A stretch of DNA of 62,446 nt, the filler included, from Hausera hauseri (taxonomy: Eukaryota), in the NCBI GenBank assembly GCA_046269625.1. It is 12 parts of 12 records of this genome, joined end to end, with 100 filler letters (N's around TTAATTAATTAA, not from the genome) between each part and the next. Parts side by side here need not be neighbours in the genome. Positions count along the whole stretch, not along the records: positions 19,799 to 27,899 come from JBJURY010774313.1; positions 28,000 to 32,836 come from JBJURY010418477.1; 10 more parts are not named here. One strand, written 5' to 3'. The notes beneath the pieces are model-generated. The model ran no database searches, was not told the origin of the DNA, and saw only the letters and a list, made by a program, of their open reading frames with translations. This document shows positions 9,362 through 57,658 of the stretch, one piece after another; position 1 is the stretch's first letter, and every line of letters starts with the position of its first letter. A program made the translations under genes and the position numbers.

Positions 9362-12300
9362 TTTCTCCTCCCTGAGCGGCACTCTCGGATATGCCTATTG
9401 CGTCAGAAGAGTTGCTGCGTAAACGATTCATTCTCCCACGTATGTCCGCTTCCGAATCTGACTCATCTCGCGGGGGTCGCAAGTCAAAGCGGTATGCTGT
9501 AGTAGGCTTTTGAGTGAATATTTCCACTATCTTCTTACTCTCTCCATTAGAGAAATAACGCAACCTCGTAGCTTCAGCCCTATATACTAGGCAGGTCATC
9601 TTCCCATTTTCAGGGTCCACGTTTCTAAGCAATAATGACAGTAATTATGGGTGCAGTTCTTATTATCTAACACCACAAATCCTTTGTATAGGTTTGCGTC
9701 ACAAACGAGGCATTCTTCTTTTCACCCCATCTATATCTATAAGATTTTCGTCAATTTCAATTCGTTCGAACACGAGTCCCTTCTTGTCTTGGTATAAATA
9801 TCCGCATAGCCGTTTCTATTTAGGGTCTATTGAGCTCTTTTGGGGTCATCCGATAAGATAACCAATGTCCATACAACGATTTCTTGTTAGTCCAAATCTG
9901 GTGTCCCCATCTTCTTGTATTGCCTCTTTAACTGCACTCTGACTTGGGTGTCTACCGGAATAGTTAGTCGTTGGGTTTCGTTTCTTGATTGAAATATCGG
10001 GGCTAAATATCTGCCAATTGTTGCGTCTTTTCAGGAATATCCATTTCCACTCACAATTCTCCCAGGAACAGTAGAGACGTAAAATGTCGCTTCTTTAATT
10101 TTGCCATTGCTATAATATTCGGCCATGACGAGTATTCAGGTGTATTCTTCAACCTGACCGAATTCGCTTACTATGATAGGGGTTGCTTCTTTCCAGTTTC
10201 TTCGAAGGACATTTACTTCTGTTTTGGGTGGCTTATAGCTGAAGGTCTTTGTTCTTTGTTCGTTGGATTTTTCGGATCCCTGTTCTTTTGGTTTATCCTT
10301 TGGATTTATCACTTCTTCTTTAATAATTGGTATAAAACTTCTAGTAGACGGTTTCATTTCTTCGACTTGACCCTTACTGGTCTTATTTTTCTTTCTACTG
10401 ATATATTCGAAGAATGAGGGTTTCGACTTTTTCCCTCTCTGAGGCTCTCCGATGTTCGATTTTCATTTTCCCGTTGTCTTTTTGGAGGAGGGTCGGCCTT
10501 CGGTTAGACTGCAATTGGTGGATGGTGTGGTGTTCACATTCACCCAATCGATGATTTGTACAAAAAACATTTCTTGTTTTAATAAAGAAACTACTGAAAA
10601 ATTTCGCTCAAGATTTGAAATTGCGGCAGCTTAATTCAAAAAAGACTGTTGATTGGTGACTTAACAATTTTGCATTATTCTACTGTCGCAATTTTATCAG
10701 TTTTTTAAGTCGATTCAGTTCCTATTTCATTCGCCGTTCTGCACTCTAATTGATAGTTTTTATTTCGAGTTCCAGATTTGTTCCAGATAAAAGTGATCAC
10801 TAATTGATAGTCTTCGTCTGGCCGCTATTCAATTACTGTAATTGACTTGGTGTTATTTTCTAATTGATTTCAATTTGAACGTTATTTCTGTAAATGTCGT
10901 CATGAATAATTTCAAAATTAACTGTTTGTCAAGTTTATATTTTCTTTAATTACTAATTCCTTCTAGACGAAGTACAACACGCGGATTTCAATTTACTTTC
11001 TATTGATGCTGGATGTATTATTGTAATCGTTTTATTTTCTGACGAATTCTGGCTATCCATGGATACCGTACAATAAATGGACAAATAGTAATTGAAAACT
11101 TCGGAAATAACAGATGGGGTTTTCTGGTTATTTCCATTTGATCCTTTCTGTTCGAACAAGTTGACTGAGCTGTTTTGAACGGTTATTTGGAGATTATTAT
11201 GTCCTTGGATTTCAGTCTGTCTATACGAGGGGTATTCGCTAAATCCTTTTCGAAATTTCTGTATCAAGATTTTTGGGTTACTGTCGGACATTACATTCTG
11301 TGTAGAGTTTCTCGGCTTCCACTTTTGTTCCCAGCGTAGCGAGATATAAATATCTGTTACAAATCTGATTTTCTGACTCGCTGATATCAATTTGGGAAAT
11401 CTAAATGGTTCACAATTCATAGCTTTTAACATCATCTTAAACCGTGATTCACGAGACGCTGAAGGAAGTAGACACCCCCTTTTCTCATCAGGGTACGTTT
11501 TGTTTGAACTACGACTATCGGATTGCGACTCACTTCACGAATTTCGGCTATATATTTCTATCGGATTCCTAATCTTTCTAGCATTTCGTGTACTTTAAAT
11601 CCGGTTATAACATATCCGTACAAGCAATGGCTTATGTCTTCTTGAATCTCTAGAAAATCTTTCCACTTTTCGAGTTGTAGTTTTGTGATTCCGATAACGT
11701 CGGGAAATGTATCTTTCACCTTCATCCTAGGTGCAATTATTTTGTTTATAATTTCTTCTCCATTTATACTTCGGATAGAGACTTCGATTGGGATGAACCA
11801 TCCATCATCCTTTTCTCCATAGTTTACGGCTAAAATTCGAGTATTCCTGCCATCTGGAACTAGCCTGAAAGCTTCTCCATTCTGTTCTATCTCGTCTTCT
11901 ATGGGGCTTCTGTATACATAATATTGATGGTAGCGGTCTCATCACTTCTCATCACAAGCTTAGTCGGTAGTTCAGCAATTCTAAACTCTAAAGCGTAGTC
12001 TATGAGACTAGCGCAATATAACTCATATGTACTAAATTTTCCTTGTTGACCTCTTTTGGTACTCTAGGGCTGCCCTACGATCCTGTACTGTATTTCTCCA
12101 TCAGCGATATGTATGTACATTTGCTGGTGTGTCAGTTCGTATGGGATCATATCTCTCAACAGATATGCTCGTGCATCTTTTGGACTTCGCATTGCGTATA
12201 ATCGAACTATCCGATTTTCTTCTAAGCCCCATTTCAGTCCATTTGGTATTTTGCTTTCTTGATCGATTTCTAAACAAGTTTGGTTTTTCAATCTTTCTCC

Positions 12301-17546: not shown

Positions 17547-19953
17547 AATTCAAGAATCAATGTAATAACCCGATTCTATAAATTTGTGAAACCAAACGTA
17601 TTGAGTGATATGATTTGATACGATGATTAATTTCTTAGACAACAAATCGTTCATTGATAGACACTGAATCACAGTTAAACATTTTGATGAATTTTCGGCT
17701 CCAACACATGAAAGTATGGAAGTGAATAAGCCATATACTGTTTTATATTTATAATTTACCTTAATTGATTATTAGGAATGTTAACCATTTTGATCGGTTG
17801 CTATTTTGGTAGGTTTAGTTTTGCATTACGGCATCTTGGTAAGTACATTTATTATTTAACTGATTGAATATACAATCAAAATCCGAAAAATAAATGAAAA
17901 CAGATTTTACCACAGGATTTTCTTAGAAATTTTTGTGATTGTTGAAGAAATATTACTTTTTTAAATTGTTTTACCGGCGCCTCAAACCCCCATTATCCCT
18001 CGCAAATGTTCCTCAAATGCGTCGTGTCGTTGAACTTTTTCTTCGGCGAGAAATGTTTGCAAACTATACCAAATGCCATCGATCAAGAACTAGCGAGGCC
18101 AATCATGTAAAGCCGGAAGAAAACGTTGATAACATTTTTGGCTTTGGACTCCCACCAACAAGGAAAACGAAAGTCGAAGGCCGCAAATTATTGTCTCTTA
18201 TAAGTGGCACCTTTAACTGTTTTGTATATTGAAGATTTATAAATGTAATTGAGTGAAGTCGATGTAAAACCTTTTCCGAAGCCGCAAAATACTATTTTCC
18301 TGCGAAGGCCTCAATAATTTTTCAAAAGATCGCATGCAGCTATCTAGACCGCTGTTTCCTTCACCTGATAATGAGACTGGTTCCTTCAGTTTCGTTATAA
18401 ATTGAATCTGTTGGAAAATGAAAAATACTTTTTACAAAGCTATGATTTGGTGTAGTAATCAGTTTTCAAGTGTTGCATAGTTTCGCATTTCTTCATATTT
18501 CCCTTGGCACACAGAAGAATTTTGACTTTTCATAAAATTTTCGTTTTTATTTCAATAAGTTTGATTCTTCACCTAAATATTGACAAATAATAATGGTGGA
18601 TAAACGGGCGGACATGTATGATAAATGTGATGTCATTTGGAAGTAGAGTTTAGCGAATCGTGCATATTAAGAAAGAGAATGTGATATTTAAGGGATAATG
18701 TGAAAATTTAATGTATTATTTTTATACTACCCTGACATCTATAAGTAAATTAAGGTACGGAAAATGGTAAATGATTCTGAAATTTATCCTGAATGTACAT
18801 ATTTTTAATGATATAGGACACTATTTTCTCAAGTACTTGAATTTTGATCGTGAAGTATGATTTTGTTGGTATTGAAGTTTGCACTGCACGGAGTTATAAA
18901 CGACTCCGTATGTTGCGTTCGTGCGTATATTTCTGTTAAATCAATTGCATGACTGCATGACTGATTATTCTGTATGTTGATTGTATCCTAGTATGACTGT
19001 ATAATTGTAATTATCCGTCAATTCTGTATTTCCATATTATGACATTCATCAGTTAGCATGACACCTGTATATTATTGTATGTCTTAATAACATTGTGAAT
19101 AATTCATGTTTTAGTGTAAATAACCCCCTTATTATCTTTTGGTTTTGTCTTGGGACTGAAAATGGAGCCTTATACAGGTTCACAGACCTTTTTCAGCGTG
19201 TTGACGTCATGCCTGAATGTGGATCGGTTGCATCGCGTATTTACGAGCCAAACTGCTACTCGTAACAGCCTTGAGTTAGGGTGATTTTCCAGAGTGAAGT
19301 ATTTTGTCCGTATGGTCGGCAATTATTATTTTGCTACCATTTCTCATACACTTACGAAACGCGATGCCGCCGCCTGTCATTTGATCAGTGAGAGTTATCT
19401 CCTGTTTATTGATAACACCACGGAATAGGAATTAGTACAGTTATATAATTGAGCATTATGATTGTCTAAGGAGCGGTCGTAAATTATTTTGCATCCATTG
19501 TCTGATATGAGTGGATTCTATCCTGATTTAATACATTTTCTTTCGCGAATTGCTCTTATTTTCTCCGCGCATGTGAAAACAGATTTTCTCTGATTTAAAG
19601 CGTTGAGACATTGCGGCTATGTCTTGCTGATGTGTGACGCATTGCGTTTATTCTTTATTATTGCGTATATTCTTGAATATGCTTTCAGACATTACCGGNN
19701 NNNNNNNNNNNNNNNNNNNNNNNNNNNNNNNNNNNNNNNNNNTTAATTAATTAANNNNNNNNNNNNNNNNNNNNNNNNNNNNNNNNNNNNNNNNNNNNAA
19801 ATTCGGTCTTATATTCATCAATAATTTACATTTATTCGGGAAATGATGTATTATGACTCGATTTGACATTTTATAAATAAGGTCAGAATTATGAAAACTT
19901 AAGTTGAATATTGTCCGAGGTATTCGCCTGATTTCGACTATTTAAGTTCGACA

Positions 19954-20464
19954 TGCGTCGGTGCTTCAAAACGTTTGTGGGAAAATTGTTCTTAGGATTT
20001 TGTTTAATCGAATAAGGATATGAAATTTGATTTTGGAAAATTTTGAATTTAATCATTAATCATAAATTCATTGATTATATATATTTGTAGTAAATTTTAA
20101 TTATCTAAATAAAATTTCATATAGATCAATATAAAGTATGTTCATTATCCTAATTTAATATTTTGTACTTGTATAACATGCCATGTATAGAGTATTAAAT
20201 AAGTACTTAAATAAGATGAAAGTGTATTTTTCCAAATGAATCTCAAATACTTTATATATCATACTGCTCATTTATGCACAGCACGAATTATATTTATAAT
20301 GACTATATAGAGAGTTAAGCAAACTTTTAGTTTTTCATATTTGTTTTGAACGCGAATTATGCAAACGAATGTGAAATTTCCGCAAAATTTATTATTTTAA
20401 ATTGATACAGATAAACAAAATCCTAAGAGTAATTTTTCCACAAACTTTTTGAACTGCCTACGTA
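19954..20464. mobile_element. MITE with ~54-bp imperfect terminal inverted repeats
   Basis: AAAACGTTTGTGGGAAAATTGTTCTTAGGATTTTGTTTA matches the reverse complement of about 20412-20450; AT-rich non-coding interior. Confidence 0.75.
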
Positions 20465-21954
20465 TTAGTGAGATAATTCTCAAACTAAAGAAGAAGATCA
20501 CAATATGCAAAATAAAGAATTTCAGTCATTATGGCAGGCAAAGCAACAAATATTTGCCTAGCCTAAAGAAGCCCAATATAATCCTGTTTATTTGTTAGGC
20601 TCGACGTTCTAATCCATTGATTAATCTACCATTTTCCTGTTGACCAAATTAATCCTGCATACAGAATGTCTTAAATAGATATATAATTAAAGCGCAAAGT
20701 CAAACAATCATGCTCGTCCAACTAGTATTCGTGGAACTACTGATCAGCACTGTGTCTAGTGACAAAATTCGTAAACGTTTCTGACACTAAATTTATAAAT
20801 TTTAACATTTAGAATGCACGGATTTACCCGTTGAAGAAGCAATTCGGTGTTACTTTGTGAGCAGTCTGTATTTACCAAGTGGGATGGACAATTTAACAAT
20901 AAATGCCGTTGCCAAATCTGCATTTGGCGAGGTAAAGAAAGGTGAACAAGGCGAGATTTTGTTCAATTCTCCACTCCTGTCTCTGTCATATTTTGTGCAC
21001 AATAACGAATGTTCATTCGAGTATTCTCTTTAATTTGTGAATATCTCAGGTCAGACGACAATAACACATGTCGCCCTGTTATCTTTTCCATAAACATGTG
21101 AAACCTCAGACACAGTTGTTTCTTGCAGAAAATTTCTGGTAAAGTTCACCAACTTCTGACGGTCATATTTTTCTGTCTGTCCAATTATAGTCTCAAAGGA
21201 AGTAATTCTGATGATTCTGTGAGCGAGATTCCTCTTTACGACAATTACAAAAAAATTGGGCACCAGAGGATATCCTCAACAAAGGCAATTCAAAACCTTC
21301 GAAAATAGTCACAAAATTATGACGGCAATAGGAAATTTCAAAATGGTGGAATCACAGTTAGAGAGAACGAAATCGTAAAATTCAAAAATTAAATCCAAAT
21401 CGAAATTCAAATTATCTTTAAATATCAAAATCTTTCAACAGAGAGAAAATAGCAATGGTTGCTAAAATGAAATCGAAAGCCTTTTATCAATAAAAAATGT
21501 CCAAAATGTCTGTTTCTGGTCATGAGGAATATTTAAACAAAAATTTATATAAATATGTACATCTACAAGAGGCCGGGTAATTCCAGCAATTACTAACTCC
21601 CGACAATATAATGATTTGGCGATTTTGGTTGACCTTGTCGACGAATAAAAATTGAACAATCATACATATGGATTTAACAACAAAAATCTGAAATGAGCGC
21701 AAATCAATCGAACTAATCACAAATACATATGGAAATAGGGACGAGCGATCGGCGAGAATGAAACACTGATAGCGACAGTAATTTAATTCAAATCCTGATA
21801 ATCACCTTTTACGAATTGGTCTTTTTAGATTTAATGCTTGACTAAATTAGTGTTTTCTATCTTTTCCCTCTGATTTCTAAATCACAACATTCGGTATTAT
21901 GAATCGACAAACATAGGACATTCTTTCGTTTGGTTTCGGTGCAAATATTGGTAA

Positions 21955-22735
21955 TTTACTTTCCTTTCTCTCTATGCGCAGTAAATTCAATGTCTGTTCT
22001 TCAGATAAGTAATCTTGAGTTACGAAATCGTGCGAAAGCAGTATTTCCGCAGTTGGTCGTCGCCGCTCATTTTTTGATCAGTGCATATTTAAGGAGGAAG
22101 TGAAATCTTGGTGACCACGATTCTTTTTTCTGAAGTTTTAGTGGTGAATACGTTCTCTGGGCCAAAATCTGCAAGGCATACATAGGATGTAAATCAAATA
22201 ATGGTGGCTGTAGTTCTGCATATTCAATAGCAGTAATACCAACTGCCCAGACGTCACAGCGTTCGTCGTATCTACTTTATCTATTGTTCACTGCAGCAAC
22301 TTTCGGTGTCCTCCAGTACGGAGTTCCTATTAACATGTTTCTTTTGGCATAAGTGGAAGACAATTTCGCTGCGATTCAAACGTCAGCTATTTTCACTTTT
22401 CCATTATCAGTAAGAGGGATATTAGCACCTTTCATATCTCTATAAATACGATTCTTTTTGAGCATATACTCAAGACCTCTGAGTGTTTCTCTAGAAATAA
22501 ATGCAATCGTATTTTTTCAATGGACCGTAGGAGATTGAGATAAATATCTTGTATTGACTGACCACCGCAAAACTCCATACAAATCCAAAGTTTTGAATTT
22601 TGCAAATAACTTCCAAAAAACTGTACAATATTTTTATGCGTACATTCTTTTAATGTATGAATTTCTTGGCAAATAACTGTAACGTCATCACGAAGATCGA
22701 TTTTCATTATTTTGATGGCAACATGCAGATTGGTT
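21955..22735 (-). pseudogene. MAP4K (GCK-I/Ste20, MAP4K3/5-like) kinase domain
   Basis: VAIK, KLWICMEFCGG, YRDMKGAN, DFG changed to DV*, GTPYW, CDVWAVGITAIEYAELQPPLFDLHP; frameshifts and stops. Confidence 0.92.
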
Positions 22736-23384
22736 TTATCAAAGTACCAGCAACTTACGGTTTCTTAATGTGACAATGATTGTTATCAACGACACGAAAA
22801 AAACATCATGGGTTGATTTAAGATGATCGCATAACCTCTGACAGAATGGTAGGTCTTCTAATTTCGTTACCAAATTTAACACGCCGAAAATTGGTTTTTG
22901 TGATTGGGATCCGCGATTCGAACAAATAGTATCCAATTCATGCCAAGGAAGATGGTTTGAAAGTTTATTCTCATCGCTAACCGTACTGACAACGTTTATC
23001 AAACAGTTTGAATCATTTTCTTCAGTTACTGGTGGCAAATATGTCGGAAGCAATGACCGTATCGATTGCTTGGAAATGATAATTATGAACCAAATGGGGT
23101 ACAACTAATCCCACAATTGACATCGATTGAGCTAATAGAATTTCCAATACCAGATTCGAAAGGACAGCTGATATGAGTATTACAAGAATCGTGCGAAGCC
23201 TTGGAATATGACCTAGAGTTACAAAAAGAGTTAAAGTCTATATCTGATTTGATGTGTAGTCTGAAATTTAAGCTACTTGTAAATGAAGACCTGTTGATAA
23301 ACTTGACACAAGAAATTTCCTCAGAATTATCATTAGTCGTATCCGTTCGCCTTATAGCTTAAATTTTAGAGGCGGAAGATCTGG

Positions 23385-23462
23385 GCCCGACGCGGCGGCA
23401 ACGGACGCCCGGCCGTGTCCAACCAGATGGGCCAGAGGGAGCCGGGCGCTGTGGGCACCACA
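23385..23462 (+). mobile_element. GC-rich LTR right end of the CsRn1-like family, directly abutting a Tc1 transposase
   Basis: 66/78 ungapped identity to the reverse complement of 56126-56203; ends TGTGGGCACCACA. Confidence 0.85.
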
Positions 23463-24405
23463 ACCTTACTTCCAATGTCCAGAGCCAATTACCGGTTGAC
23501 ATGGAGAGCTCTACAGAATGCATGGCAAAATGAGTGTGGTGTTATCTTGAGTTATACAACAGTTAAACGGAGGTTATGCAGCGGTGACTTTATGAGGCGA
23601 ATTGCTAAAAAGAAATTTTTGTTAACGAAAAGAAATCACCAATTCCGCTTGCAATGGGCAAGAGATCATCTCCATTGGACTCCTTCTTCGTGGCGGCGTG
23701 TTCTGCTCAGTGACGACAATCCTATGTACTTCATCCAACATGCCCAGCAACGATATATCCGTATTCATCAAGGTACCAATTTTCAGCAAGACTTCTGCAA
23801 CTGTTCACTTTGGCGGTGGTCACATGATACTTTTGGGTGCTTTGTCTGGTAGTGATCAAAAATGTCTCTGTCAAGTCTCCTATCGGCTAGATTCAGAAGA
23901 GTACATTCATATAATCGATGATAATGTTATTCCGCTTAACTTATCGGCAAGCAACATGGTTTTCCAACAGGATAACTGTCCTATTCATCGCACTTGACGA
24001 ACAACACAGTTTTTTGTGGCTTCCGAACTAACATTACTTCGCTGGTTAGCACAATCACCTGATTTAAGGCCCATAGAAATTTATAGGTCATTTTGAAAAG
24101 ACAGATGGCATCAAATCATGTTGTTTTCTGATATGCAAGAACTATGGGTGGCAGCACAAACAGAGTAGGCAGGTTTGGATGAAATTGTTGACCCGCCTTG
24201 CAGATGTAAAAGCGTCATTGCTGCTCAATGAGGTCATACTCGTTACTGAGACGCTACAGTTCTATTTATACTGCATTCTATCATGAACTTTGTAAAAGTG
24301 TAATTAATATAATATAGTATATGACTACAAACCTTACAGCAAATATTTCCCGTATTTTTTGAAAATTTTTATTGCGTGGTGTTATTTATTATGGGCGGGG
24401 TTGTG
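23463..24405 (+). mobile_element. 5'-truncated Tc1 (DD34E) transposon, degenerate
   Basis: RLQWARDHLHW...LLSDD; QQD-34 aa-E (WLAQSPDLRPIE); ends GHTRY*. Confidence 0.88.
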
Positions 24406-25661
24406 TTAGTTATTTACATTAAGTTGATATTCAGATTTATGGCTGTTAATTACTCGTTTGTAAAAAATTAAAGATACTATATTTTGAATTTGTTGAAAGG
24501 CTGTAGTTCGGTGTTTCTAATCGATGATGGTGTCACACATAAATTGCTTTTCGAATTATGGGAAACGGAGTTGAGCGAAATTGGAATTCGCACTGATTAG
24601 ATTGGACGCTTTGCCATAATTTGATGGGACCAGTGTTTAAAGTTAATGGACTCACTATATTGGAAATTGTATTGGTCGAGTTCTTTGGTGATGTTGTAAC
24701 GTAGAGAAAAAGGATGATTGTGTTCACTCCGTGGTACGTGTTTTGAATTTGAAAACTGATCACTCGATTGTCGGCAAATAATGACCAGAAAACAGCGATT
24801 GAGTTCAAAATCTACGCGGGCTTTGGGGCGTTTTACGTCAGGCGTTTTTTGCCGAGAATTGGGACTGTGTCTGCAACCGCGTCACTAAACGGCCTATACA
24901 AGGCTGTTGCACAATCCAAAACATCTTAAATGAAATTTCTGAAATAGAATTTTTGATTGTTGTAGCTTGATTTATTTCCTACGAAATAAGAAATGAATAA
25001 CATATGTATAATAAATTTGTTCTGGCCGCGTTCTGTTTCCCATTTTTGTTTCCTTTTCTGGACGCGTACATTTCGCAGTACGTCAAGATGCGCTGCAACA
25101 GGCGACAAAAGTCGGCTGATTCCAATAATCATTATCATCATTCAGTCCAGATTATTCCAACAACGATCGATTATTTCCAAATAGATAAAATTACCCTAAC
25201 TATGTAGAAATTTCAAAGATTTTCTATACAGTTATAAAATTACTCTTGCCTCTTCACTTCTAAAGCAAGTATGCACAGAGCATTTACATTGTTGCCGGGA
25301 ATTTTAATAGATCAAACATTTGAAGGCCGAAAAATAAAATTTGGAGAATTGGCCGGATACACCGAACCAGTTGGCAATATTTAATTTAGCGTTCTTTGCA
25401 TAAAACGTTTAATTAAAATGTTATAATTTTTTCATAAAAACAACGAAAAGAGGTTATTTTCCGAAAAATGCCAGATGAAATCATGGATGTCGTTAAATAC
25501 AACGAATTCGCCGAATAGGAAGTCGTTATGAAAGTTACATAGGGAACTGTAAAAACCGAGAAAAAAACGAAACCGTTCAATTAATTCCATTCTAACTGGA
25601 AGAAGTCGCCGGGAATGTTGCAGAAAAAATCGAAGAAACCGAAATCATTCCAAATCGACAC

Positions 25662-25945
25662 ATGTCAGGAAAAGAAACTAAGAAAGTAACAAGAACCCAA
25701 AACAAATGCAGAAGTTTGAGAGTTGATTTTCAATTCCCAGTCGGAAGAAGCCACGGATTTCGGAGAAAAAACTACACTGAATGTATTATTTCTGTTACAC
25801 AGGTATACTCGGCTACAGTTCCCGAATACTTATCCGCGGAATTTGATTAATTAGCCAAAAACGCCTCCAAAGTCAACAAGAAATCGACAATCAATCCACG
25901 ACACTTGCAGTCTGCCATCCGAAATAACGAAGAACTGGATTCCAA
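25662..25945 (+). pseudogene. H2A: Histone H2A pseudogene
   Basis: RSLRVDFQFPVGR...EYLSAE..*LAKNASKVNKKSTINPRHLQSAIRNNEEL. Confidence 0.88.
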
Positions 25946-26179
25946 TATTTTTGAAGTCCGCGGCCGAAAAATATACTAAAAAATAAAACTTTTATAAATG
26001 AATATAGTAAAATTACCAGTTTTCCTTTCTTTTACAATTATGATGTAAATTTCGACATTTCTACCTTTCAAATAAAATAAATCCAAAAAATAAAGAATAA
26101 ATACAATTTTAGCATTATGTCAGGAGGAATTGATATGACAACTGTAGTGCCCCGAACTCGGGCGCCACCACAATCCAAC

Positions 26180-26725
26180 TGCACCGAATTCCGCTGTCAG
26201 AAATTGACTTCTAAGACCAACCGACAACTTCAAGACACATTCTATGTCATTGCCAGAAACAATTGTTTCACACATGTGCATTCTTATTTTCCTTGGAAAC
26301 CAGACAGAATTTTTTCTACTTATTTAATTTCGATCGAGTAAGAACAATGTTGTACCTGGGTGGTGTTTCCAACCAAGACTCTGATACGTTACTTAATTCA
26401 TCAACTTCGGAAATGCATAGAGCACGCATACGGGTTAACAGATCAGAACGATTATTAGAAGAGCCCGAATTGCTTCTTAAAAAATTATTCAGATCCTTCA
26501 GAAATTTCTTTTAGTAATGAAGTAGGTTTTGGTTTTGGACCAACAAACGAATTTTATACTTAAGTCAGTAAATGTTTGAAAATTAATCTGGTGTCGATCG
26601 AGGAAATACAGCTAACGTTTGCTTGAATTCTCCTGCAAACAATATTAATGCGTTCCTAAATTGTCTGATGTTTCCACGTAAATCTAGCAATAATCGAGCA
26701 GGAGCCTTGGTCGATTTTTTGTGCA
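26180..26725 (+). pseudogene. TRIP12: TRIP12/UFD4-like HECT E3 ligase fragment
   Basis: KLTSKTNRQLQD, CAFLFSLETRQNFFY..FDRVR, NEVGFGFGPTNEFY; frameshifts and stops. Confidence 0.8.
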
Positions 26726-26738
26726 TGTGGTGACCACA
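26726..26738 (-). mobile_element. LTR right-end motif TGTGGTCACCACA (minus strand) at the junction between TRIP12 and fish-like DNA
   Basis: 12/13 match to the terminus at 23450-23462; TRIP12 similarity appears to stop here. Confidence 0.65.
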
Positions 26739-27524
26739 TCTTCCAAACAAGGTAGCAACCAGTCAGAGCCTTTTTTTCTTACTAGTTAAATAAAAATTCT
26801 AACATAAAAAAACAGAAAAAGAAATACCTGCATCTACTTGAAGGTCTTGTTTAGGTCTACTGCTTTGTATTAATCTAACTAAAGTAAGAAAAAATGGTGA
26901 GTTGACCTGAAAATGGCTTAACGGGAAGAAAATTACATTATAACAACAATGCTTGTGAACGAACAAGTGTCTGTTTTAAATCAACTGCATTTTTGGTTCA
27001 AGTATCTTCATTCAGGGCAGTTAATGCAATACAAACAAAAATGCATTTGTTCTGCTCACAGATGTTTTTATTGCTGCTGGTTTAACTCATCTTTATAATT
27101 TTGCCCTCCAGATTTCTCTTTTGTTCTGTTCCAGTTTGGTTTATTTTAAGAACATACAACTTCAGTTCAGGCTAATGCTCTCAGTAGTTATTTTTATTTC
27201 CTTATCTTAAATACACAGCCGATTCAGCTGAAATTCCTCAAAGATGTTTAATGTCATGCATAACACAATAACCACCCAAGATGAAAGTAGCAATGGCACA
27301 GTTTTCCGCTGGAGTCTGGCATCATAATGTCCAGATTTATCGATGTGGTATATCTGTATCGATACGCCAAATACGTAATGGTAAATACTGATTCAATTGG
27401 AGATGTGATGCTTTTTGTTTTGCTTGTAAAACATGAATGCTGTTGTCATTTATTATTTTCGTGTCATCTGGTAACCAATCCAACTTTCTCCGTCCGTTTT
27501 TCCTTTTCCCCCCTCTCATTTCAG

Positions 27525-27666
27525 ATACCTCCATGATCGCTATAAAACAGCTGTGCAAGTTTTGTGATTTGCAGGCCACCAACTGTCCCGGTAAGGGAAT
27601 CTGCAAGGTGGATTGTGAAATTACCTCCATCTGCCCCGATGATAATGACGTGTGTGTCAGCATCTG
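27525..27666 (+). CDS. TGFBR2: Teleost-type TGF-beta receptor type II ectodomain exon (142 nt) with intact splice sites
   Basis: QLCKFCDLQATNCPGKGICKVDCEITSICPDDNDVCVSIW parallels vertebrate QLCKFCD...CSITSIC....VCVAVW; polypyrimidine tract plus CAG acceptor and GTAAG donor. Confidence 0.9.
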
Positions 27667-28018
27667 GTAAGCTCCGTTTCCACAATATCTCATCATTTGG
27701 GACCTGATTTTCATCTTGACTCAGTTTATCTGATGTTCTGATATTTGCATGTAAAGCAGACAAAAAGCAAAAACGGGAGAATCCTGTAAGGAGCCGGATA
27801 CTTTTCACAGCACGGCGAATGTCATACTTTTAAGGAATATGTTGGAGCTAAAAAAGAGCAAGTTTGGAATAAAGCCAAACCGGACACATCTACATATTGN
27901 NNNNNNNNNNNNNNNNNNNNNNNNNNNNNNNNNNNNNNNNNNNTTAATTAATTAANNNNNNNNNNNNNNNNNNNNNNNNNNNNNNNNNNNNNNNNNNNNT
28001 GAAGATAACAAACATCAT

Positions 28019-31000
28019 TTGACTGACTTCACATCAAAGTCAAAGAAGATCATCTTTAATGAACATAAGTCAGTTGCAGCAGCACAGCCTGCAGTACTAC
28101 AGCCAGATGAAGGATTAAAACGTGCATCAGGACCATTATGCGCAGCAGCATCAGGTGCAGCAGCATCAGGCACGGCCACATCAGATGCACCGGCTCCATC
28201 AAAAAGCCAAGGACAGCGGCCGGTTAATGCTGCAGCATTACACAGAAAAGTCTACATTTATGTCATTGATGCAACTGGTCAAACAACCCTCAAGGAGTTC
28301 CTGGAGTACGCAAAGGACAACATAGCTCAGCTCAACGCCATTAAGGCTAATATAAAACTTGAGGCCACTTACGTCAATGTTGATGGTAAAGAGTCCAAAA
28401 GGGTCTTCAAGACCAGAAATAGGCAGAAACAATTTTTGAAGCCACCAATATAATAAAATGGCTGCATGAAGAGCATGCGAAGGTGATTATTGACGCCGAT
28501 GAGAACCAGAGTAAGAAGAGCGGATGGACTCTGAGAAACGTTAAGAGCTTGCTTGTGTATGTGCACAGATTCTCGCACTATGCGAGGTAGTGTACATGTT
28601 CAGCTCCCTGATTGGATCGCTAATAAAAAAGCATGTGACAATGTCCATAATAACGACAACATGTGTTTCATGTATGCCATTCTATAAAAACCCGTACCGG
28701 ATCAACATAATGCTTTACGAGTTTTGCGATATAAGGATGTGCAGCACAACTATGAATTCCAATGTATCACATTCCCTCCATCCTTAGATGAAATTAGGAA
28801 GTTCAGTCAAATCGACAACATATAAACCAAGATCTTTTGATTGGATGAGGAAGATAAATTCTATCCCCTGCAGATATGATAATGAATTGGAAGATCATAG
28901 GGATCTGCTCCTACTTGACGATGGAGAAAAGAAACATTACGTATGGATAAGGAATTTTCAACGTCTAGTAAGATCCCAAATTACTAATCATCATGGAAAA
29001 ATTGAGATCTGTAAGCGATGCCTGTCTCATTTTAGCGGTGATACTGCAGTGGACAGGCTCGCAGAGCACAAGATTTACTGCAGCAACAATTACTGTATCA
29101 GGCCAGAATTTCCCAAGGAGGACTATATTGAATTTAAGGAGTTCTAGAAGAAGCTCAAGGTCCCAATTTTCGTCTATTGCGACTTTGAAGCTATTCTCAG
29201 ACCCGTTCGGAGTTGCAGTCCTAATCCCCAACATAGCAGCACAACGGCATATCAATATCATGAGCTCTCATCATATTGCATGTATGCCAAAGGACTGGAC
29301 AGTGAACCATTTCTATTCAGGGGCCAGGCGCAGCAGCTCATTTCATGAAACGACTTAAAGATTGTGATTAGGTCTATTCATGGTCTTACCCAGTGAAGAA
29401 TTCAAATCTGTATTTTGCTTAATGATATCTGAGTCCAATCCGAAAAAATCGACATTCGAATTAGCCTGAAAGTTGTTAAACGTTATCGGTTTAACTGGAG
29501 TATCATGACGACTCGTATGTTGATATGATACAGTTGAAAAGATCTGAGATTTAAGCGAATTGATAGAATTCGTAGTAGATAAACGAGATTCCGAAAGATT
29601 ATCTTGGGTTGAATTAACTACAAATGCACCGTGAGTGCTCTGAATTGGGATCGGTGATTTCTACAATCGGTGGAGTTGAAAGTTCATCACAAACATTGTT
29701 GGAATTTGCGCTTATATCAGGTTGAGAAACCTCTGATCAATTCGGATACGAATGACGTATGACTTTGTGGCTGATTTAGAACATCATAGAAGTATTTTCT
29801 CTAGGTGTCGAAGACACATCAACTATCGCTTGGTTATCAGTTTGAGAATAATTTACGTCACCATGAGGCTCATACTGACTGGACCTTTCAGTTAAGCGAT
29901 TATTACATGTCTGAATATTAGTATGAGAAAAACCATATCTTTCCGAACGACTTTCTGGATTACAACAATTCATTAAATTTTTTTCTTTGGTATAAAACTT
30001 ATTCACTTAACAAAAATCCGACTTTTCTCTGGCTAATATATTCTCTTTTTTGAACTGTTTGAAGTACATTAATTTTTCTTTGGTTGTTAGATCGATTCCA
30101 GTTAATCATGTATAATCGGCAATTTCAGTTTCGGCAACTTTGTAATCATAGTTAATATGTTTCTTCAAGAATAATTCGTCCATTTATTTTACCTTCATCC
30201 AGCAATAGCAAGAACTCGTAGGAAAATAAAACTATTATAATAGTAAATCCAACACCAATTAAAAAAATCGAACTCTGCATAAAGTCTTATTTATTTAAAC
30301 AATCAGTTTTTGTTTTTTACAAATTCCACATGCAGATCACCAATTGGGTGAATGTGGGCGCCACAAAGATATGTCTCATAGGATTGGAGATATGCTGCAG
30401 CAGCATAAGGATACAATGAGCATGTCGATGCAGCAAGAAGAAAACAGCATGTTACTTGTGCTTTACTAAGGAGAATTATAAAGTCAGGGATCACTGCCAA
30501 TTTACAGGCACATATCAAGGTGCGGCATGCAACAACTGCAGTTTACGTTGCAAAACATGTACATATGTGCCTGTAGTGTTCCATAATCTCGGTTGCTATG
30601 ATTCCCATTTCATTGTTCGGAAACTGGGCAGCACTGAAGGAAACATTGATGTGATCCATAATAGTGATAAGTACATCACCTTTACGAAGCATGTTGGGAA
30701 AATCAGACTACGCTTCGTAGACAGTTTCCGTTTTATGTCGTCTTCACTTGACAGTTTAGTGAAGAACCTCCCTGCATAAGAACTCAAGAAGACGAAGTGG
30801 TTCTTCCCTATCTGGTCAAGAGGAAAGGCGTGTTTCCGTATGACTATATAACATCATGGGAAACAATGAATGAGACCTCTTTGCTGGCCAAGAAGGACTT
30901 TTGCAATATCCTCTCTGATTGCAATATCAGTGATATGTACTACCAGCATGCACAGAACGTCTGACATACATTTCAATGCCGAACATTAGGCGAATACAGC

Positions 31001-32360
31001 GACATATATCTCAAGACTGACGTGCTGTTGCTGGCGGATGTCTTTGAGAGTTTCAGGGATCTTACGATAAACAGCTATGCATTGGATCCGGCTCACTTCT
31101 TTACAGCTCCAGGGATGAGTTGGGCAGTTATGCTAAGATATACCGGTATTAGGGTTCAGATCATAAAGGATTACGACATGATCCTCATGATTGAGAGAGG
31201 TAGTAGAGGCAGAATATTCCAGGCCATTCACCGGTATAGCGAGGCCAAAAACAAGTATAGGGCCCAGTATGATCCATCCATGGAATCCTCATATATATCA
31301 TACCTGGACGCCATCAACCTATATGGATTGGCAATGAGCGCCCCATTGCCATATGATAACTTCAAATGGGTCGAGAATCCTGAAAACATCCATATACTGG
31401 ACCTAGATCCCACTGGCGATACGGGATACATAGCGGAGGTGGATATGGAATATCCGGCTTCTCTCCACACAAGGCATTAACAGCTGCCTTTCCTCCCTGA
31501 GAGCAAGCCACTGCCCCATAAAAAGCATAGAAAGCTGGTCTGCCACCTGGCTAGTAGGGCGAGGTATATATTGCACTACATAAATCTCCAGTAGGCGGTT
31601 AGAAATGGACTCCGCATTACTAAGATCCATGGAGCCCTGCAGTTCAGCCAGTCAAACTGGCTGTAGCCCTACATAGATCTCAATACTAAGCTGCGGACGA
31701 ATGCAAAGAACGATTTTGAGAAGGACCAGTCCAAGCTTTACAACAACAGCCTTTTTGGCAAGACCATGGAGAATATTCGGAACAGGATCAACATCGAACT
31801 GGCCTCTGTGTAGAAGCGGTCAAAGAAGTTTATTGGCAAGCTCAACTTCCACAGCAGCATCACATATGCGGAGAACTTGCTCAGCATCCACATTAGGGTA
31901 CCCACATTCAAGTCCATAAAACTGATGTACATGGATACTGATAGTTTCATCTATCAGATCCATACAGAGGACAATTATGAGGACTTTGCTTAGTTGGCTC
32001 AACATATGGTTACGTCTGACTATCTGAAGGAGTATCCCAACTATGCAATTACTAACAAAAAGGTCCTTGGGAAATCCGAAGACAGGTGAATGGAGCAATC
32101 ATCTCGAGATTTATGGCTCTTAGGTCCAAAATGTATGCCCTTGATGTATGTGGTCAAGTAACGAAGCGGGCTAAAGGGGTTCAAAGGGCGACCTTAACCA
32201 AGAAGATTGGCTTCGATGACTGTGAGAGTTCTGCATGAGCAGACTCATCATATCAGAGATGCGAAGGATCCAGTCTAGAAAGTCTAGATTGAATGGATGA
32301 CAAAGGCAGATCATTGGTGATGGAATATGCACACTACCTCACGGACATGTTGCATTAATG
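28019..32360 (+). mobile_element. Degenerate Polinton/adintovirus-type protein-primed PolB, interrupted by the 29363-30365 insertion
   Basis: [85 protein letters not shown]. Confidence 0.92.
29363..30365 (+). mobile_element. 1003-bp TG...CA insertion (solo LTR-like cargo unit) with 5-bp TSD AAGAT and an antisense host-like ORF relic
   Basis: AAGAT at 29358-29362 and 30366-30370; starts TGTGATT, ends TGTGGGCGCCACA; removal restores FMKRLKD/MSHRIG. Confidence 0.9.
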
Positions 32361-35646: not shown

Positions 35647-36931
35647 CATGGTGCGCGGGATAAATTGGCAATATGTTGAATTGTTGTATATGTAAGACGT
35701 CATGTAACCTCAACCTGAAAACCGAATTACTTGAAGTCTGCTTTTCTAATTTACTTATATTTTTTAGACATATTTATTTAAAAATGAGCAAGGAGTAGGA
35801 TGTTACAGCAACCATCATACACGGACTCCGCGCCGGTAGGACTGCCAAAGAGATCTTAAAGATCAGTAACATCCTCATGAGGACAGTTTACAATAAAAAA
35901 AGGTACGACACTGAGATAAAAGCTGAAAAGTCTCCTAAAAACGTATCCTCCATCAGAAAGCCTCACAAAAGGCGCAGAGACACGAAAGACAATGACTTCG
36001 TGAAGAGGGTGCAAGACATGATCAACAGTGATCCCGGCAGATCCATGCGTTCTATCGCGGATGAGTTACAAGTTTCTGACTCCACTATTAGACGAATAGT
36101 GGAGGAGGATATCCACTACAGATCTTATGCGTTTAAGCGAAGCCAATTCATGAATGCGTGTACTAAGAAAAGGCAGCTTGGGCAGGCCCAGCTTCTGTTG
36201 GCTCGGATCAAACACCCTCGAACTCAGGGACAGCTCATCTTTTCCGATGAGAAAAACATCTCTCAGGACCAAAAGATAAACCGACGAAACAACAGGTGGT
36301 TATGTTATGACCATGAGGAAGTATCGATAGTCATGGCGACAAAGTTTCCAGCCACCATCATGGTTCTTGGCGTCATTCCCACTGAAAGGGATATGATGCC
36401 CCCTCACTTCTTTGAGAAGGGGCAAAAGGTGAATACAGAGGCCTACGTTGATGTGATGAGGACAGGTAGAGCCTTGGATGAGGCAGGTTGCTTCTGGGAG
36501 ACATTTTGTCTTCAAACAAGATGGTGCACCCCCGCACACTGCCAAGAAAACTCAAAAATGGCTGCTGGACAACCTGCTTGAATTTTGGGAGAAAGAAATT
36601 TGGCCACACAGCTCTTCCGACTGCAACCCCCTCGACTATTGCGTGTGGGCGTTTGTGGAAAGAATGTCAGTAAACGTCCTCACAACAACATGAAATTACT
36701 GAAGACCAAGGTGACAGAGGTGATGGTGCACATAAAGAGGGAGGCAATTGTAAAGGCATGCAAGAGATTCCGGATCCGAATTGAGGCAGTCATAGACCAT
36801 GACAGTGATTTCTTTGAGTAAACTATTTCAAAACAAGCTAGCAGACATATGTTTGAAGTTTCAAATTAATATTTTCAGGAATTATGACTTTTCAATTATT
36901 CGGTAAAGGCCAATTTATCCTGCGCACCCAT
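35647..36931 (+). mobile_element. maT (DD37D) Tc1/mariner transposon, near full length, frameshifted
   Basis: TIRs GGTGCGC(G/A)GGATAAATTGGC at about 35650-35669 and 36909-36928; FSDEK, QDGAP-37 aa-D (DCNPLDY). Confidence 0.92.
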
Positions 36932-37104
36932 CATCGCTGGTGACGAAATTAAAACGTATGCGACAACCCGTCATATACAATGATATTATGCATCAGAATC
37001 CATTGACATTTCTATGTATGAATTATTGTGTGGACTTACTTAGACGCCAATGTACATAAAATTGTTATAAACGTTGTTTTGTTAATAAATATTTTATTGA
37101 AATA

Positions 37105-54500: not shown

Positions 54501-56218
54501 TGGTGCAATATTTTTTGATTTTGTATGATTGATTATACTTTTAATCACACGGTGCTGCTTGCAATAAACTAGTAAGTTGTAGTGCGATAAAAAATCAGAC
54601 CCTAAAATTGATGTTTTAATATCTGCAACAACGAAATTCCATTGAAAGACATAAGAAAAATGTGGCAGGGTGAAAGACATTTCTGTAGCACCAAAAATAC
54701 GTAATGCTTGCCCATTTGCCGTGAAGAGTTTAGTAGACGTACGGAGCATTTTTAGTGAAGTGAAAGATGAAGGTAGTAATGAACCAGCTGCACCTGAATC
54801 GATCATAAATTTAGTGTGGTGCGGAAAAGATGTGAATCCAGAATCCAATAAGAAAACGCTATTGGTAGAAGTACGGCAGTCAAAACAGAAAAGATGGCCT
54901 TTCCAGAATTTTCCTTAGTTTCTGGCGGCTTTAGGCGTTTTCTTTGAATAGATGAATAGGTTGGAGTTTTCTGGGTGTAAAATGTACACCCAAATAAGCA
55001 GCGCTCTACATTGTCTTTAAACCTACTGTGATAGATGCAGACAGTATCGTGTGACTGGAAACGCTGCGTATAGAACTTGCGGCCTATACAGCATTTTTTG
55101 GCATTTTGATCGAATTTTGTGTGATAATAGCACACTATTTTCCTCGAAGGTGACTGGGCGTGCCTAGAGTTTGCAGACGACTGTCTGCTTCGATCTGTTA
55201 TAAACCGACCACGATGCGGTAGATCCAAAGCGTCAATTTTGCTAGAGATGACCGATTTGGCTTGATGTAAGGCTGCATTTTTGGCTTGCAAATTTTGAAT
55301 TTGATAGACTATACTGTTCTCGTTGTTTGATGAGTTTGCTAATTGTAGATGTGTAACTATTGTTCGTGATTGCGCTACTTGCAGAGCTGCAATCGGTTTA
55401 TGTACATTACTGTTGTGAAAAATTTCGTAACTTTTTTCTGCAAGTTGCGCCAGTTTGTCGAGCGACGTAGAATCCTCCACAACAGTAATGAGTGCGAGGA
55501 TTTGGATTGACAAGGATGATAAGAAATAACGTAGAAGAAGATCCGCGTTATTTTATTGGTTTACTCCTAGTGAGTTTAGTTGTGAAAGTGAGGTGCGAAG
55601 AAATTTTCAGGGCTTTTGCTGGCCAAGAGCGTTTTCGTTGAAGTATATTTGTATTATTGTGACTAATGAAGACTCGGTTGATGTAGTTACGGTGTCAAGT
55701 AGTAATTTATATGGGTCAGAATGATTAAAGATGTCAGAAAGATTAGTTATGCCGGATTTTATATTGGGTGGAAGATGGAAAAGTAGACTGTTGGCCTTTT
55801 GAAACAAATCAGTGATTTTATGTGAGGCTAGCCACTTTGCTTGGAAGTCTAACTATGTTCTGCAAGAGTTTGGATTATCGAAGAAAAAGTCTACACATTG
55901 ATATTGTGAGAAAGAAGATGGAGTTGGAGAAATAAAGGTTTTGTTTGGGGATTTTTTATCTCCTCAGAATTGAGGTCAGATCCACCATGAAGTTTAAGAA
56001 TTAGATGTAAAGAGAAATGAAGTATGTGATTGAAAAGAGCATAACAGATCGTCGGGGCGAATAATGAGTCCATTCAGAAATAGAGAAGCCAGAAAGATGG
56101 ACGTCGTTGCATATCGATGTGTATATGTGGTGCTCACAGCGGCCGGCGCCCTCTGGCCCATTCGGTTGGGCACGGCCGGGTTTCCGCTGCCGGCGCGTGG
56201 GACACAGGCAGGCCCCGA
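51554..56218 (-). mobile_element. CsRn1-like gypsy copy A with both LTR junctions and an internal RT/RNase H deletion
   Basis: 5' LTR end GCACCACA at 56126; PPT-like GGGGCGTAC then 3' LTR start TGTGGTGC at 51862; gag CHCC x2, MIDSGA, IN core. Confidence 0.95.
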
Positions 56219-56258
56219 TTTTAATATTTATAATTAATTATAAGTATTAAATAATAAA

Positions 56259-57402
56259 TTGATATTCAAAAATCGTAAAGCAGAGTTCCAGAATAGTGAA
56301 AACAAGGACAACTCAGATAAATGTCTCATCGTTTACCGACTTCATCCGTCATATTCAGATGGAATATTATTAGTCCACATTCTGTGTGCCTCTCTCAGTG
56401 ACGAACAGTGCCCAGTCAAATTGAAAGATCGATTAAAGATTCCTCAGGCAAACTTTTAATGGCATTCGATCACCGTTTATTGGACCAGTCGTTTTCATGC
56501 AAAAATGGCTTTTGACTCGTCGTGACGTGAATATTTTCCATCCATATCCGAAACAGAAAACCTTTTCAAAGCCTATTTCAATGAGTTCATCCGATAAAGT
56601 ATCTATAGAGAATTCTAAGGAATCTAATCAAACAACCAATGAGACATCAAATCAAGGTAACAAAGAACAAAATCCTATGGAATTTAAGAATTCTGTTGAA
56701 GGTGATCGGCCATTTTATTAATGTACTTATCCATTGTCGACGGTTTCTCGAACTAAATGTGTAGCGAGGTCCACAATAACTGAAGTGTCCTTAGCAATGG
56801 TTGCGGGCGCCCTTCGGACTTATCAGCAACATATCGGTGAAGTACCTCATCCCTATGATATTTTATGTTTGATTCCCACTGATTTAACCAAAGAATTTCA
56901 TGGATCCGTATTAAATAGAAATAGTTCTTCAGCAGCCAGTAAAGCCAGTAATCTGAGTAGTATTGGCGAATATTCATCTCATTTGAAAAACAATTATTCA
57001 TTAGTCGACTGTGGTCTACCAACGAACACAGAAGGTATGATTCCTAGACTTTGGGAGGTCAAACAACAAATGGAAGAGTTGAAAAACAGTGCAGACAGCA
57101 TTATTCTTCGTGGATTAACACGTATTCTTTGGAATTTATTTCCAAAAAGTGTTGATCAGCGAATAATGCAAATATATTATAATAAAAATAGTCTTTTAGT
57201 ATCATCCCTGCATGGTCCCGATTACAATTTGAACTTTGGTGATAAAACAATCCATGATATTACGTATTGGTTTCCAACAATTTTTGATGTCTCTTTGGCA
57301 ATATCATGTTTCACATACTCCGATTCCTTTATTTGTTCAGTGTCAGCTGATGCTTCCGAGTTGCCAAAAATTCGTTTAGTTTTAGACTCTATTGTATATC
57401 AG
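56259..57402 (+). pseudogene. Wax-ester synthase/DGAT (WS/DGAT)-like protein fragment
   Basis: RLHPSYSDG (HHxxxDG-like), TITEV...AGALRTY, SSLHGP...FG...YW, ISCFTYSD; one frameshift, one stop; ends at a GT donor. Confidence 0.75.
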
Positions 57403-57658
57403 GTTATACATTTTATTGGTTTGGTGAATTTTTTAATGTTCGGACACTTTGTATAATTGTCTTTTAAATTTGAAACTTTTGAGCAAAAATACCTTTAATA
57501 TTTGCTTAAAATTATGCAATATGGGCTCTGTAAATGTTAAATCATTTTGCACTTCTTCNNNNNNNNNNNNNNNNNNNNNNNNNNNNNNNNNNNNNNNNNN
57601 NNTTAATTAATTAANNNNNNNNNNNNNNNNNNNNNNNNNNNNNNNNNNNNNNNNNNNN

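Follow-up and report, generated by a model that had tools for sequence, protein, structure and literature searches.

The window, a stretch of 62 446 nucleotides from the Hausera hauseri assembly (GCA_046269625.1), is made up of 12 contigs or scaffolds of about 4–8 kb each with 100-nt linkers between them. One of these, a gap-free contig of 8.1 kb (positions 19799–27899), carries at its right end approximately 1.2 kb of livebearer-fish TGFBR2 DNA, introns included, joined to invertebrate DNA. The features of this contig are listed in Table 1.

Table 1. Features identified on either side of the fish–worm junction (positions are those of the window)
Feature	Position	Strand	Remarks
MAP4K3-like kinase fragment, decayed	22100–22510	-	Contains stops; antisense to the LTR end at 23462; worm-type cargo
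Family-A LTR 3' end	23381–23462	+	82 nt; 84% identical to 56126–56207
Tc1/Tc3-type transposase fragment	23469–23675	+	PF01498, E = 6.6e-17
Histone fragment, decayed	25803–25922	+	PF00125, E = 5e-4, below the curated cut-off
TRIP12 fragment, decayed, intronless	26183–26557	+	Two collinear blocks; stops and frame changes
LTR-terminus-like motif	26726–26738	.	13 nt, inside a 15-nt palindrome (26725–26739, 6-bp stem); direction ambiguous
Upstream fish intron, probable	26739–27432	+	Composition only; CpG o/e 0.40
Fish intron 3' end	27433–27524	+	Homologous to the molly locus
TGFBR2 ectodomain exon, intact, poeciliid	27525–27666	+	142 nt, AG...GT
Following fish intron	27667–27899	+	GT donor at 27667; cut by the contig end

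Worm-side setting

The CpG observed/expected ratio is close to 1 over most of the window, and short introns of 39, 40 and 45 nt with GT...AG ends were found in two stretches checked elsewhere in it. Both properties fit an unmethylated invertebrate, and the non-fish part of the contig is likely to be invertebrate DNA from a worm; the description of this animal as a parasite is drawn from the presence of the fish DNA. Stretches poor in CpG (o/e 0.4–0.6) also occur at 30851–32350 and 35951–37050, within a polymerase-B region and a mariner-like transposase. Of the remaining 11 contigs, none could be recognised as fish, and Rfam gave 0 matches across the window.

The kinase fragment matched MAP4K3 in the PDB (E = 3e-48, with stops read as X) and Pfam Pkinase. 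The histone fragment is presumably H2A-like. Further to the left, at 19965–20453, 42-nt inverted repeats (90% identical) surround an AT-rich stretch with an inner palindrome, a MITE-like arrangement.

The two TRIP12 blocks (26183–26260 and 26501–26557) are each weak (E = 1.3 and 0.28, respectively), and TRIP12 was the sole PDB match. They are spaced 318 nt apart, versus 348 nt in the human protein; this leaves no room for an intron and the piece is therefore intronless. Frames read through up to 26802 gave no HECT or TRIP12 match. A search for a full-length TRIP12 relative returned two repeat proteins and no member of the TRIP12/HECT family, and a word search gave no candidate. The initial annotation had described an invertebrate-type TRIP12 pseudogene reaching to about 26725: the identification as TRIP12 stands, but scored homology extends no further than 26557, and an end of the homology at 26725 is plausible. 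A second site ending in CACCACA lies at 26160–26172, 10 nt ahead of the first block. The TRIP12 piece is thus placed between two inward-facing terminus-like sites, an arrangement which may be due to chance or to coding sequence.

Fish segment and its donor

The exon matched Pfam ecTbetaR2 (PF08917, E = 1e-13) and TGFBR2 in the PDB (E = 4e-10). It codes for the beginning of the TGFBR2 ectodomain, its closest proteins being those of livebearers, and is undecayed, with no stop and both splice sites intact. An intact vertebrate-type TGFBR2 ectodomain exon within one ungapped contig, as first annotated, was thus confirmed. No further TGFBR2 exon was found in the window.

Over 47 residues, the exon shares 44 with Gambusia affinis, 43 with Xiphophorus, 42 with Poeciliopsis, 40 with Anableps, 38 with guppy and 33 with mollies; none of the 102 proteins ranked was identical to it. 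Only at residue 31 does the exon depart from every poeciliid sampled, and there it has the amino acid of the outgroups. In a tree based on the 47 columns the exon was placed among the cyprinodontiforms (91/95), and no clade was starred. The guppy was ruled out as the donor by its 38/47 identity, and the molly, the platy and the sequenced Gambusia affinis were likewise rejected. Judged from sequence comparison, the donor is probably an unsampled poeciliid. The same exon evolves rapidly within Poecilia (proteins P0013, P0016, P0023 and P0025), which score 33–38/47 versus 40/47 for the Anableps outgroup; such fast divergence makes it well suited to barcoding the donor fish. In the JGI metagenomes no relative of the exon was found (96 pattern matches, none confirmed). 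The plasmid collection contained no match for 26600–27899, and a sequencing-run search with 25400–27899 gave no run among the matches listed.

Translation of the 92 nt that precede the exon gives, in two frames, the unusual N-terminus of a Poecilia mexicana protein (UniRef A0A3B3Y4J2; 8/8 residues and a second block), so that this intron end is also fish. For 26739–27432 and 27667–27899 the assignment to fish is made from composition and splice sites only; the latter gave no BLAST match to the worm repeats of the window. The flanking introns had been noted as far longer than the 39–47-nt introns seen elsewhere.

The CpG o/e is 1.12 to the left of the motif versus 0.53 to the right, with the best change point at 26724, on the motif (95% range 25754–26863). 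Between 26739 and 26920 there are 0 CpG versus 4.9 expected (12 of 2277 other windows are as low), and between 26739 and 27200 there are 2 versus 13.2 expected (0 of 2118). Held-out Markov models, trained on 27000–27899, left 26739–27000 unseparated from worm DNA, 205 and 181 of 381 controls scoring as high. A start of the fish DNA at 26739, as originally proposed, thus agrees with the CpG shift near the motif, but homology is found only from 27433 and the Markov models give no separation. The junction probably lies within about 200 bp of the motif.

LTR families and the junction motif

The window contains Ty3/Gypsy elements, and eight LTR termini can be defined, including those of a solo LTR at 29363–30365. 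One element on the minus strand encodes protease, RNase H and integrase in order (54914–52286), with the reverse transcriptase present in sister copies; it ends at 56126 and 51862, and its domain order and TG...CA ends are those of Ty3/Gypsy. Its 5' LTR end is 56126–56207. The conserved true ends extend over 82 nt in family A and 33 nt in family B.

Gene fragments lie behind the family-A ends. The 5' LTR of the minus-strand element (56126–57456) holds the C-terminal frame of WS/DGAT in antisense (244 codons, no stop; PF06974, E = 1e-18), and at 22100–23462 the MAP4K3-like fragment is antisense behind the same 82-nt end, one end thus being found with different cargo. The 1.0-kb solo LTR (TG...CA) has a perfect 5-bp duplication and is located in a decayed DNA-polymerase-B region, which we take to be Polinton-like. 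Copies of its last 33 nt and of an inner block of 107 nt are present at 10526–10558 and 10981–11086. The family-B end pattern gave no match in IMG/VR.

As first reported, the junction motif matches the end of the family-A LTR (23450–23462) at 12 of 13 positions and forms a short palindrome. There are four matches in the window versus 0.02 expected. The motif is the only extra 12/13 match to any of the eight termini in the 62 kb, a number that is not unusual (0.27–0.48 expected by chance), but in the 210-bp junction interval the chance expectation is 0.001–0.002; its proximity to the shift in composition is therefore unlikely to be coincidental. It probably represents either what is left of a worm LTR or a short stretch of homology that directed the joining. 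A random break would fall within 13–22 nt of one of the eight termini in 0.2–0.3% of cases and within 200 bp in 2.6%.

In all, 13–22 nt of LTR-like sequence are kept at the junction (12/13 with family A; 17/22, with one gap, with family B). The longer family-B match was discounted, as the minus-strand reading extends about equally to other termini when compared by eye. Owing to its palindromic form, the motif reads as an LTR terminus in both directions, with the fish DNA inside the LTR or with TRIP12 inside and the fish DNA outside. The earlier placement of the LTR on the fish side is consequently not confirmed. Nor does the antisense orientation of the exon, which had been likened to that of the other cargo, discriminate between the two: a minus-strand start at 26738 makes the TRIP12 and histone fragments antisense cargo instead. 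The hairpin is no more stable than shuffled sequences (z = -0.02; 95 of 200 fold as well), and no significance attaches to the imperfect inverted repeat of 28 nt at 26769/26870 (E = 0.76). No exact match to the 22-nt junction stretch was found in the JGI metagenomes. A partner for the target site is absent from the contig, with neither GTGCA, the duplication predicted earlier for another end, to the right nor TCTTC to the left; a far end may lie past 27899.

Origin of the join and its significance

The probabilities given here in words for the origin of the join are judgements and not computed posteriors. We favour, at somewhat better than even probability, an artefact of library preparation or assembly that linked contaminating fish DNA to worm DNA at, or close to, the end of a worm LTR. 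The motif would presumably be a remnant of that end, or a stretch common to worm and fish, and a polymerase could have switched templates there through short homology or at a hairpin; in vitro, inverted repeats promote such switching (PMC9484634). Alternatively, it may have been a repeat boundary across which a chimeric read connected the assembly graph. From the join the contig would have been extended along thinly covered fish DNA to end inside a fish intron. Such an origin suits an undecayed exon beside worm pieces with stops and frame changes, and a fish part that is terminal in its contig, in an assembly fragmented into 4–8 kb pieces. Terminal position, absence of decay and a sharp change of composition, all present here, are features of contaminant chimeras. 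More than 50% of scaffold- and contig-level parasite genomes are contaminated (PMC12548146), and single chimeric reads can join host sequence to contig ends, as in an RNA-seq case (PMC8376068). The fish piece is genomic, with introns, and its TRIP12 neighbour is intronless; LTR-mediated copies come from mRNA (PMC5131818). The junction has only 13–22 nt of LTR-like sequence versus 82 or 33 nt in true ends, and neither direction of reading yields a second end or a target-site duplication, whereas the solo LTR of the contig that follows in the window carries such a duplication. Against an artefact stand the low chance expectations for the motif and for a random break beside a terminus, and the position of the best CpG change point on the motif itself. 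Moreover, to assemble 1.16 kb of single-copy fish sequence with no gap would need several-fold depth if short reads were used, yet no other contig of the 11 was recognised as fish, and the exon is identical to none of the livebearer proteins retrieved (best 44/47).

A real insertion, by LTR capture or without a retrotransposon, holds a minority share of the probability. In its LTR form, which we regard as unlikely, template switching at a short homology right behind the terminus of a worm Ty3/Gypsy element would have brought in fish pre-mRNA or DNA, and the resulting copy would have been inserted into the TRIP12 retrocopy. The near-identity of the motif to a true LTR end, its standing as the only extra match in 62 kb and the beginning of the CpG shift there speak for this course, as do the gene fragments found in the LTRs of the family (MAP4K behind 23462, WS/DGAT behind 56126) and the use of short similarities (median 6 bp) by template switches (PMC5131818). 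However, the conserved 82- or 33-nt LTR end is absent, the cargo carries introns, neither a far end nor a GTGCA duplication is found in the contig, and vertebrate nucleic acid would need to find its way into a retroelement particle within germ-line cells of the worm. LTR-like sequence is present on one side only, and the contig ends before any second side. Of the criteria for an LTR retrocopy, two, a conserved local LTR end and spliced, intron-free cargo, are lacking, and the fish piece is therefore not to be classed as an LTR-mediated retrocopy. More generally, a terminal, one-ended, undecayed and unspliced piece is typical of contamination and weighs against capture. The introns, the missing LTR body and the missing duplication would all be accounted for if end-joining had patched ingested fish DNA into a broken worm chromosome at, or close to, the palindrome or an LTR remnant, as a recent and non-functional insertion; one or no private amino-acid change permits up to about 4% neutral drift (Poisson estimate). 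We nevertheless consider this course distinctly improbable, as the far junction is absent from the contig and accepted animal-to-animal transfers mostly involve self-mobile elements (PMC13155389, PMC9007160). Least probable, and by our judgement very much so, is an LTR facing left from 26738 on the minus strand, with the TRIP12 and histone fragments as its antisense cargo and the worm element inserted in, or ligated to, fish DNA. The minus-strand motif does also start like the family termini, and the intronless TRIP12 is antisense to it in the manner of the cargo of 23462 and 56126, but no far end preceded by TCTTC occurs in 19799–26725, and all 7 kb to the left are worm-like (CpG o/e 1.12). 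If the joining was by ligation, this explanation merges with the favoured artefact.

Among known systems, contaminant and chimeric parasite contigs (PMC12548146; PMC8376068) resemble the present case in that undecayed vertebrate DNA ends a short contig of a fragmented invertebrate assembly; they differ in that the break here is at or near a 13-nt LTR-terminus-like palindrome. The contested vertebrate-to-Schistosoma transfers, such as those of salmonid sequences (PMC13155389), likewise concern fish DNA in data of a probable flatworm, and earlier reports that Schistosoma contains DNA of fishes or mammals have been refuted or contested (PMC13155389). Those cases were of transposon-like sequence in an EST library, whereas a single-copy exon with introns is found here in one contig with worm DNA. 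LTR-mediated retroposition (Tan et al., 2016; PMC5131818) also places a gene fragment beside an LTR, with possible short homology at the joint, and the worm's own MAP4K, WS/DGAT and TRIP12 cargo fits this process. In contrast, the fish piece is intron-bearing, comes from another phylum and, with 13–22 nt of LTR-like sequence on a single side, lacks a second LTR segment. Perere-3/Sr3 (PMC13155389) and BovB (PMC9007160) provide examples of DNA shared by vertebrate and parasite in an aquatic or host–parasite setting, but these elements are self-mobile and multi-copy and the present segment is one non-mobile gene fragment. Hits to single non-mobile genes are treated as probable contamination (PMC13155389). 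A literature search of incomplete coverage brought up no published instance of a flatworm LTR element capturing DNA of a fish gene.

If the join is an artefact, as we favour, the assembly carries fish–worm chimeras and its other mosaic contigs need read support. It is doubtful that a worm with Gypsy LTRs that pack gene scraps took up unspliced livebearer genomic DNA or pre-mRNA that became fixed in its germ line. If the insertion is real, it would be a rare entry of non-transposon vertebrate DNA into a worm genome, with a candidate vehicle adjoining; capture, if true, would constitute a vertebrate-to-flatworm route for ordinary, non-mobile DNA.
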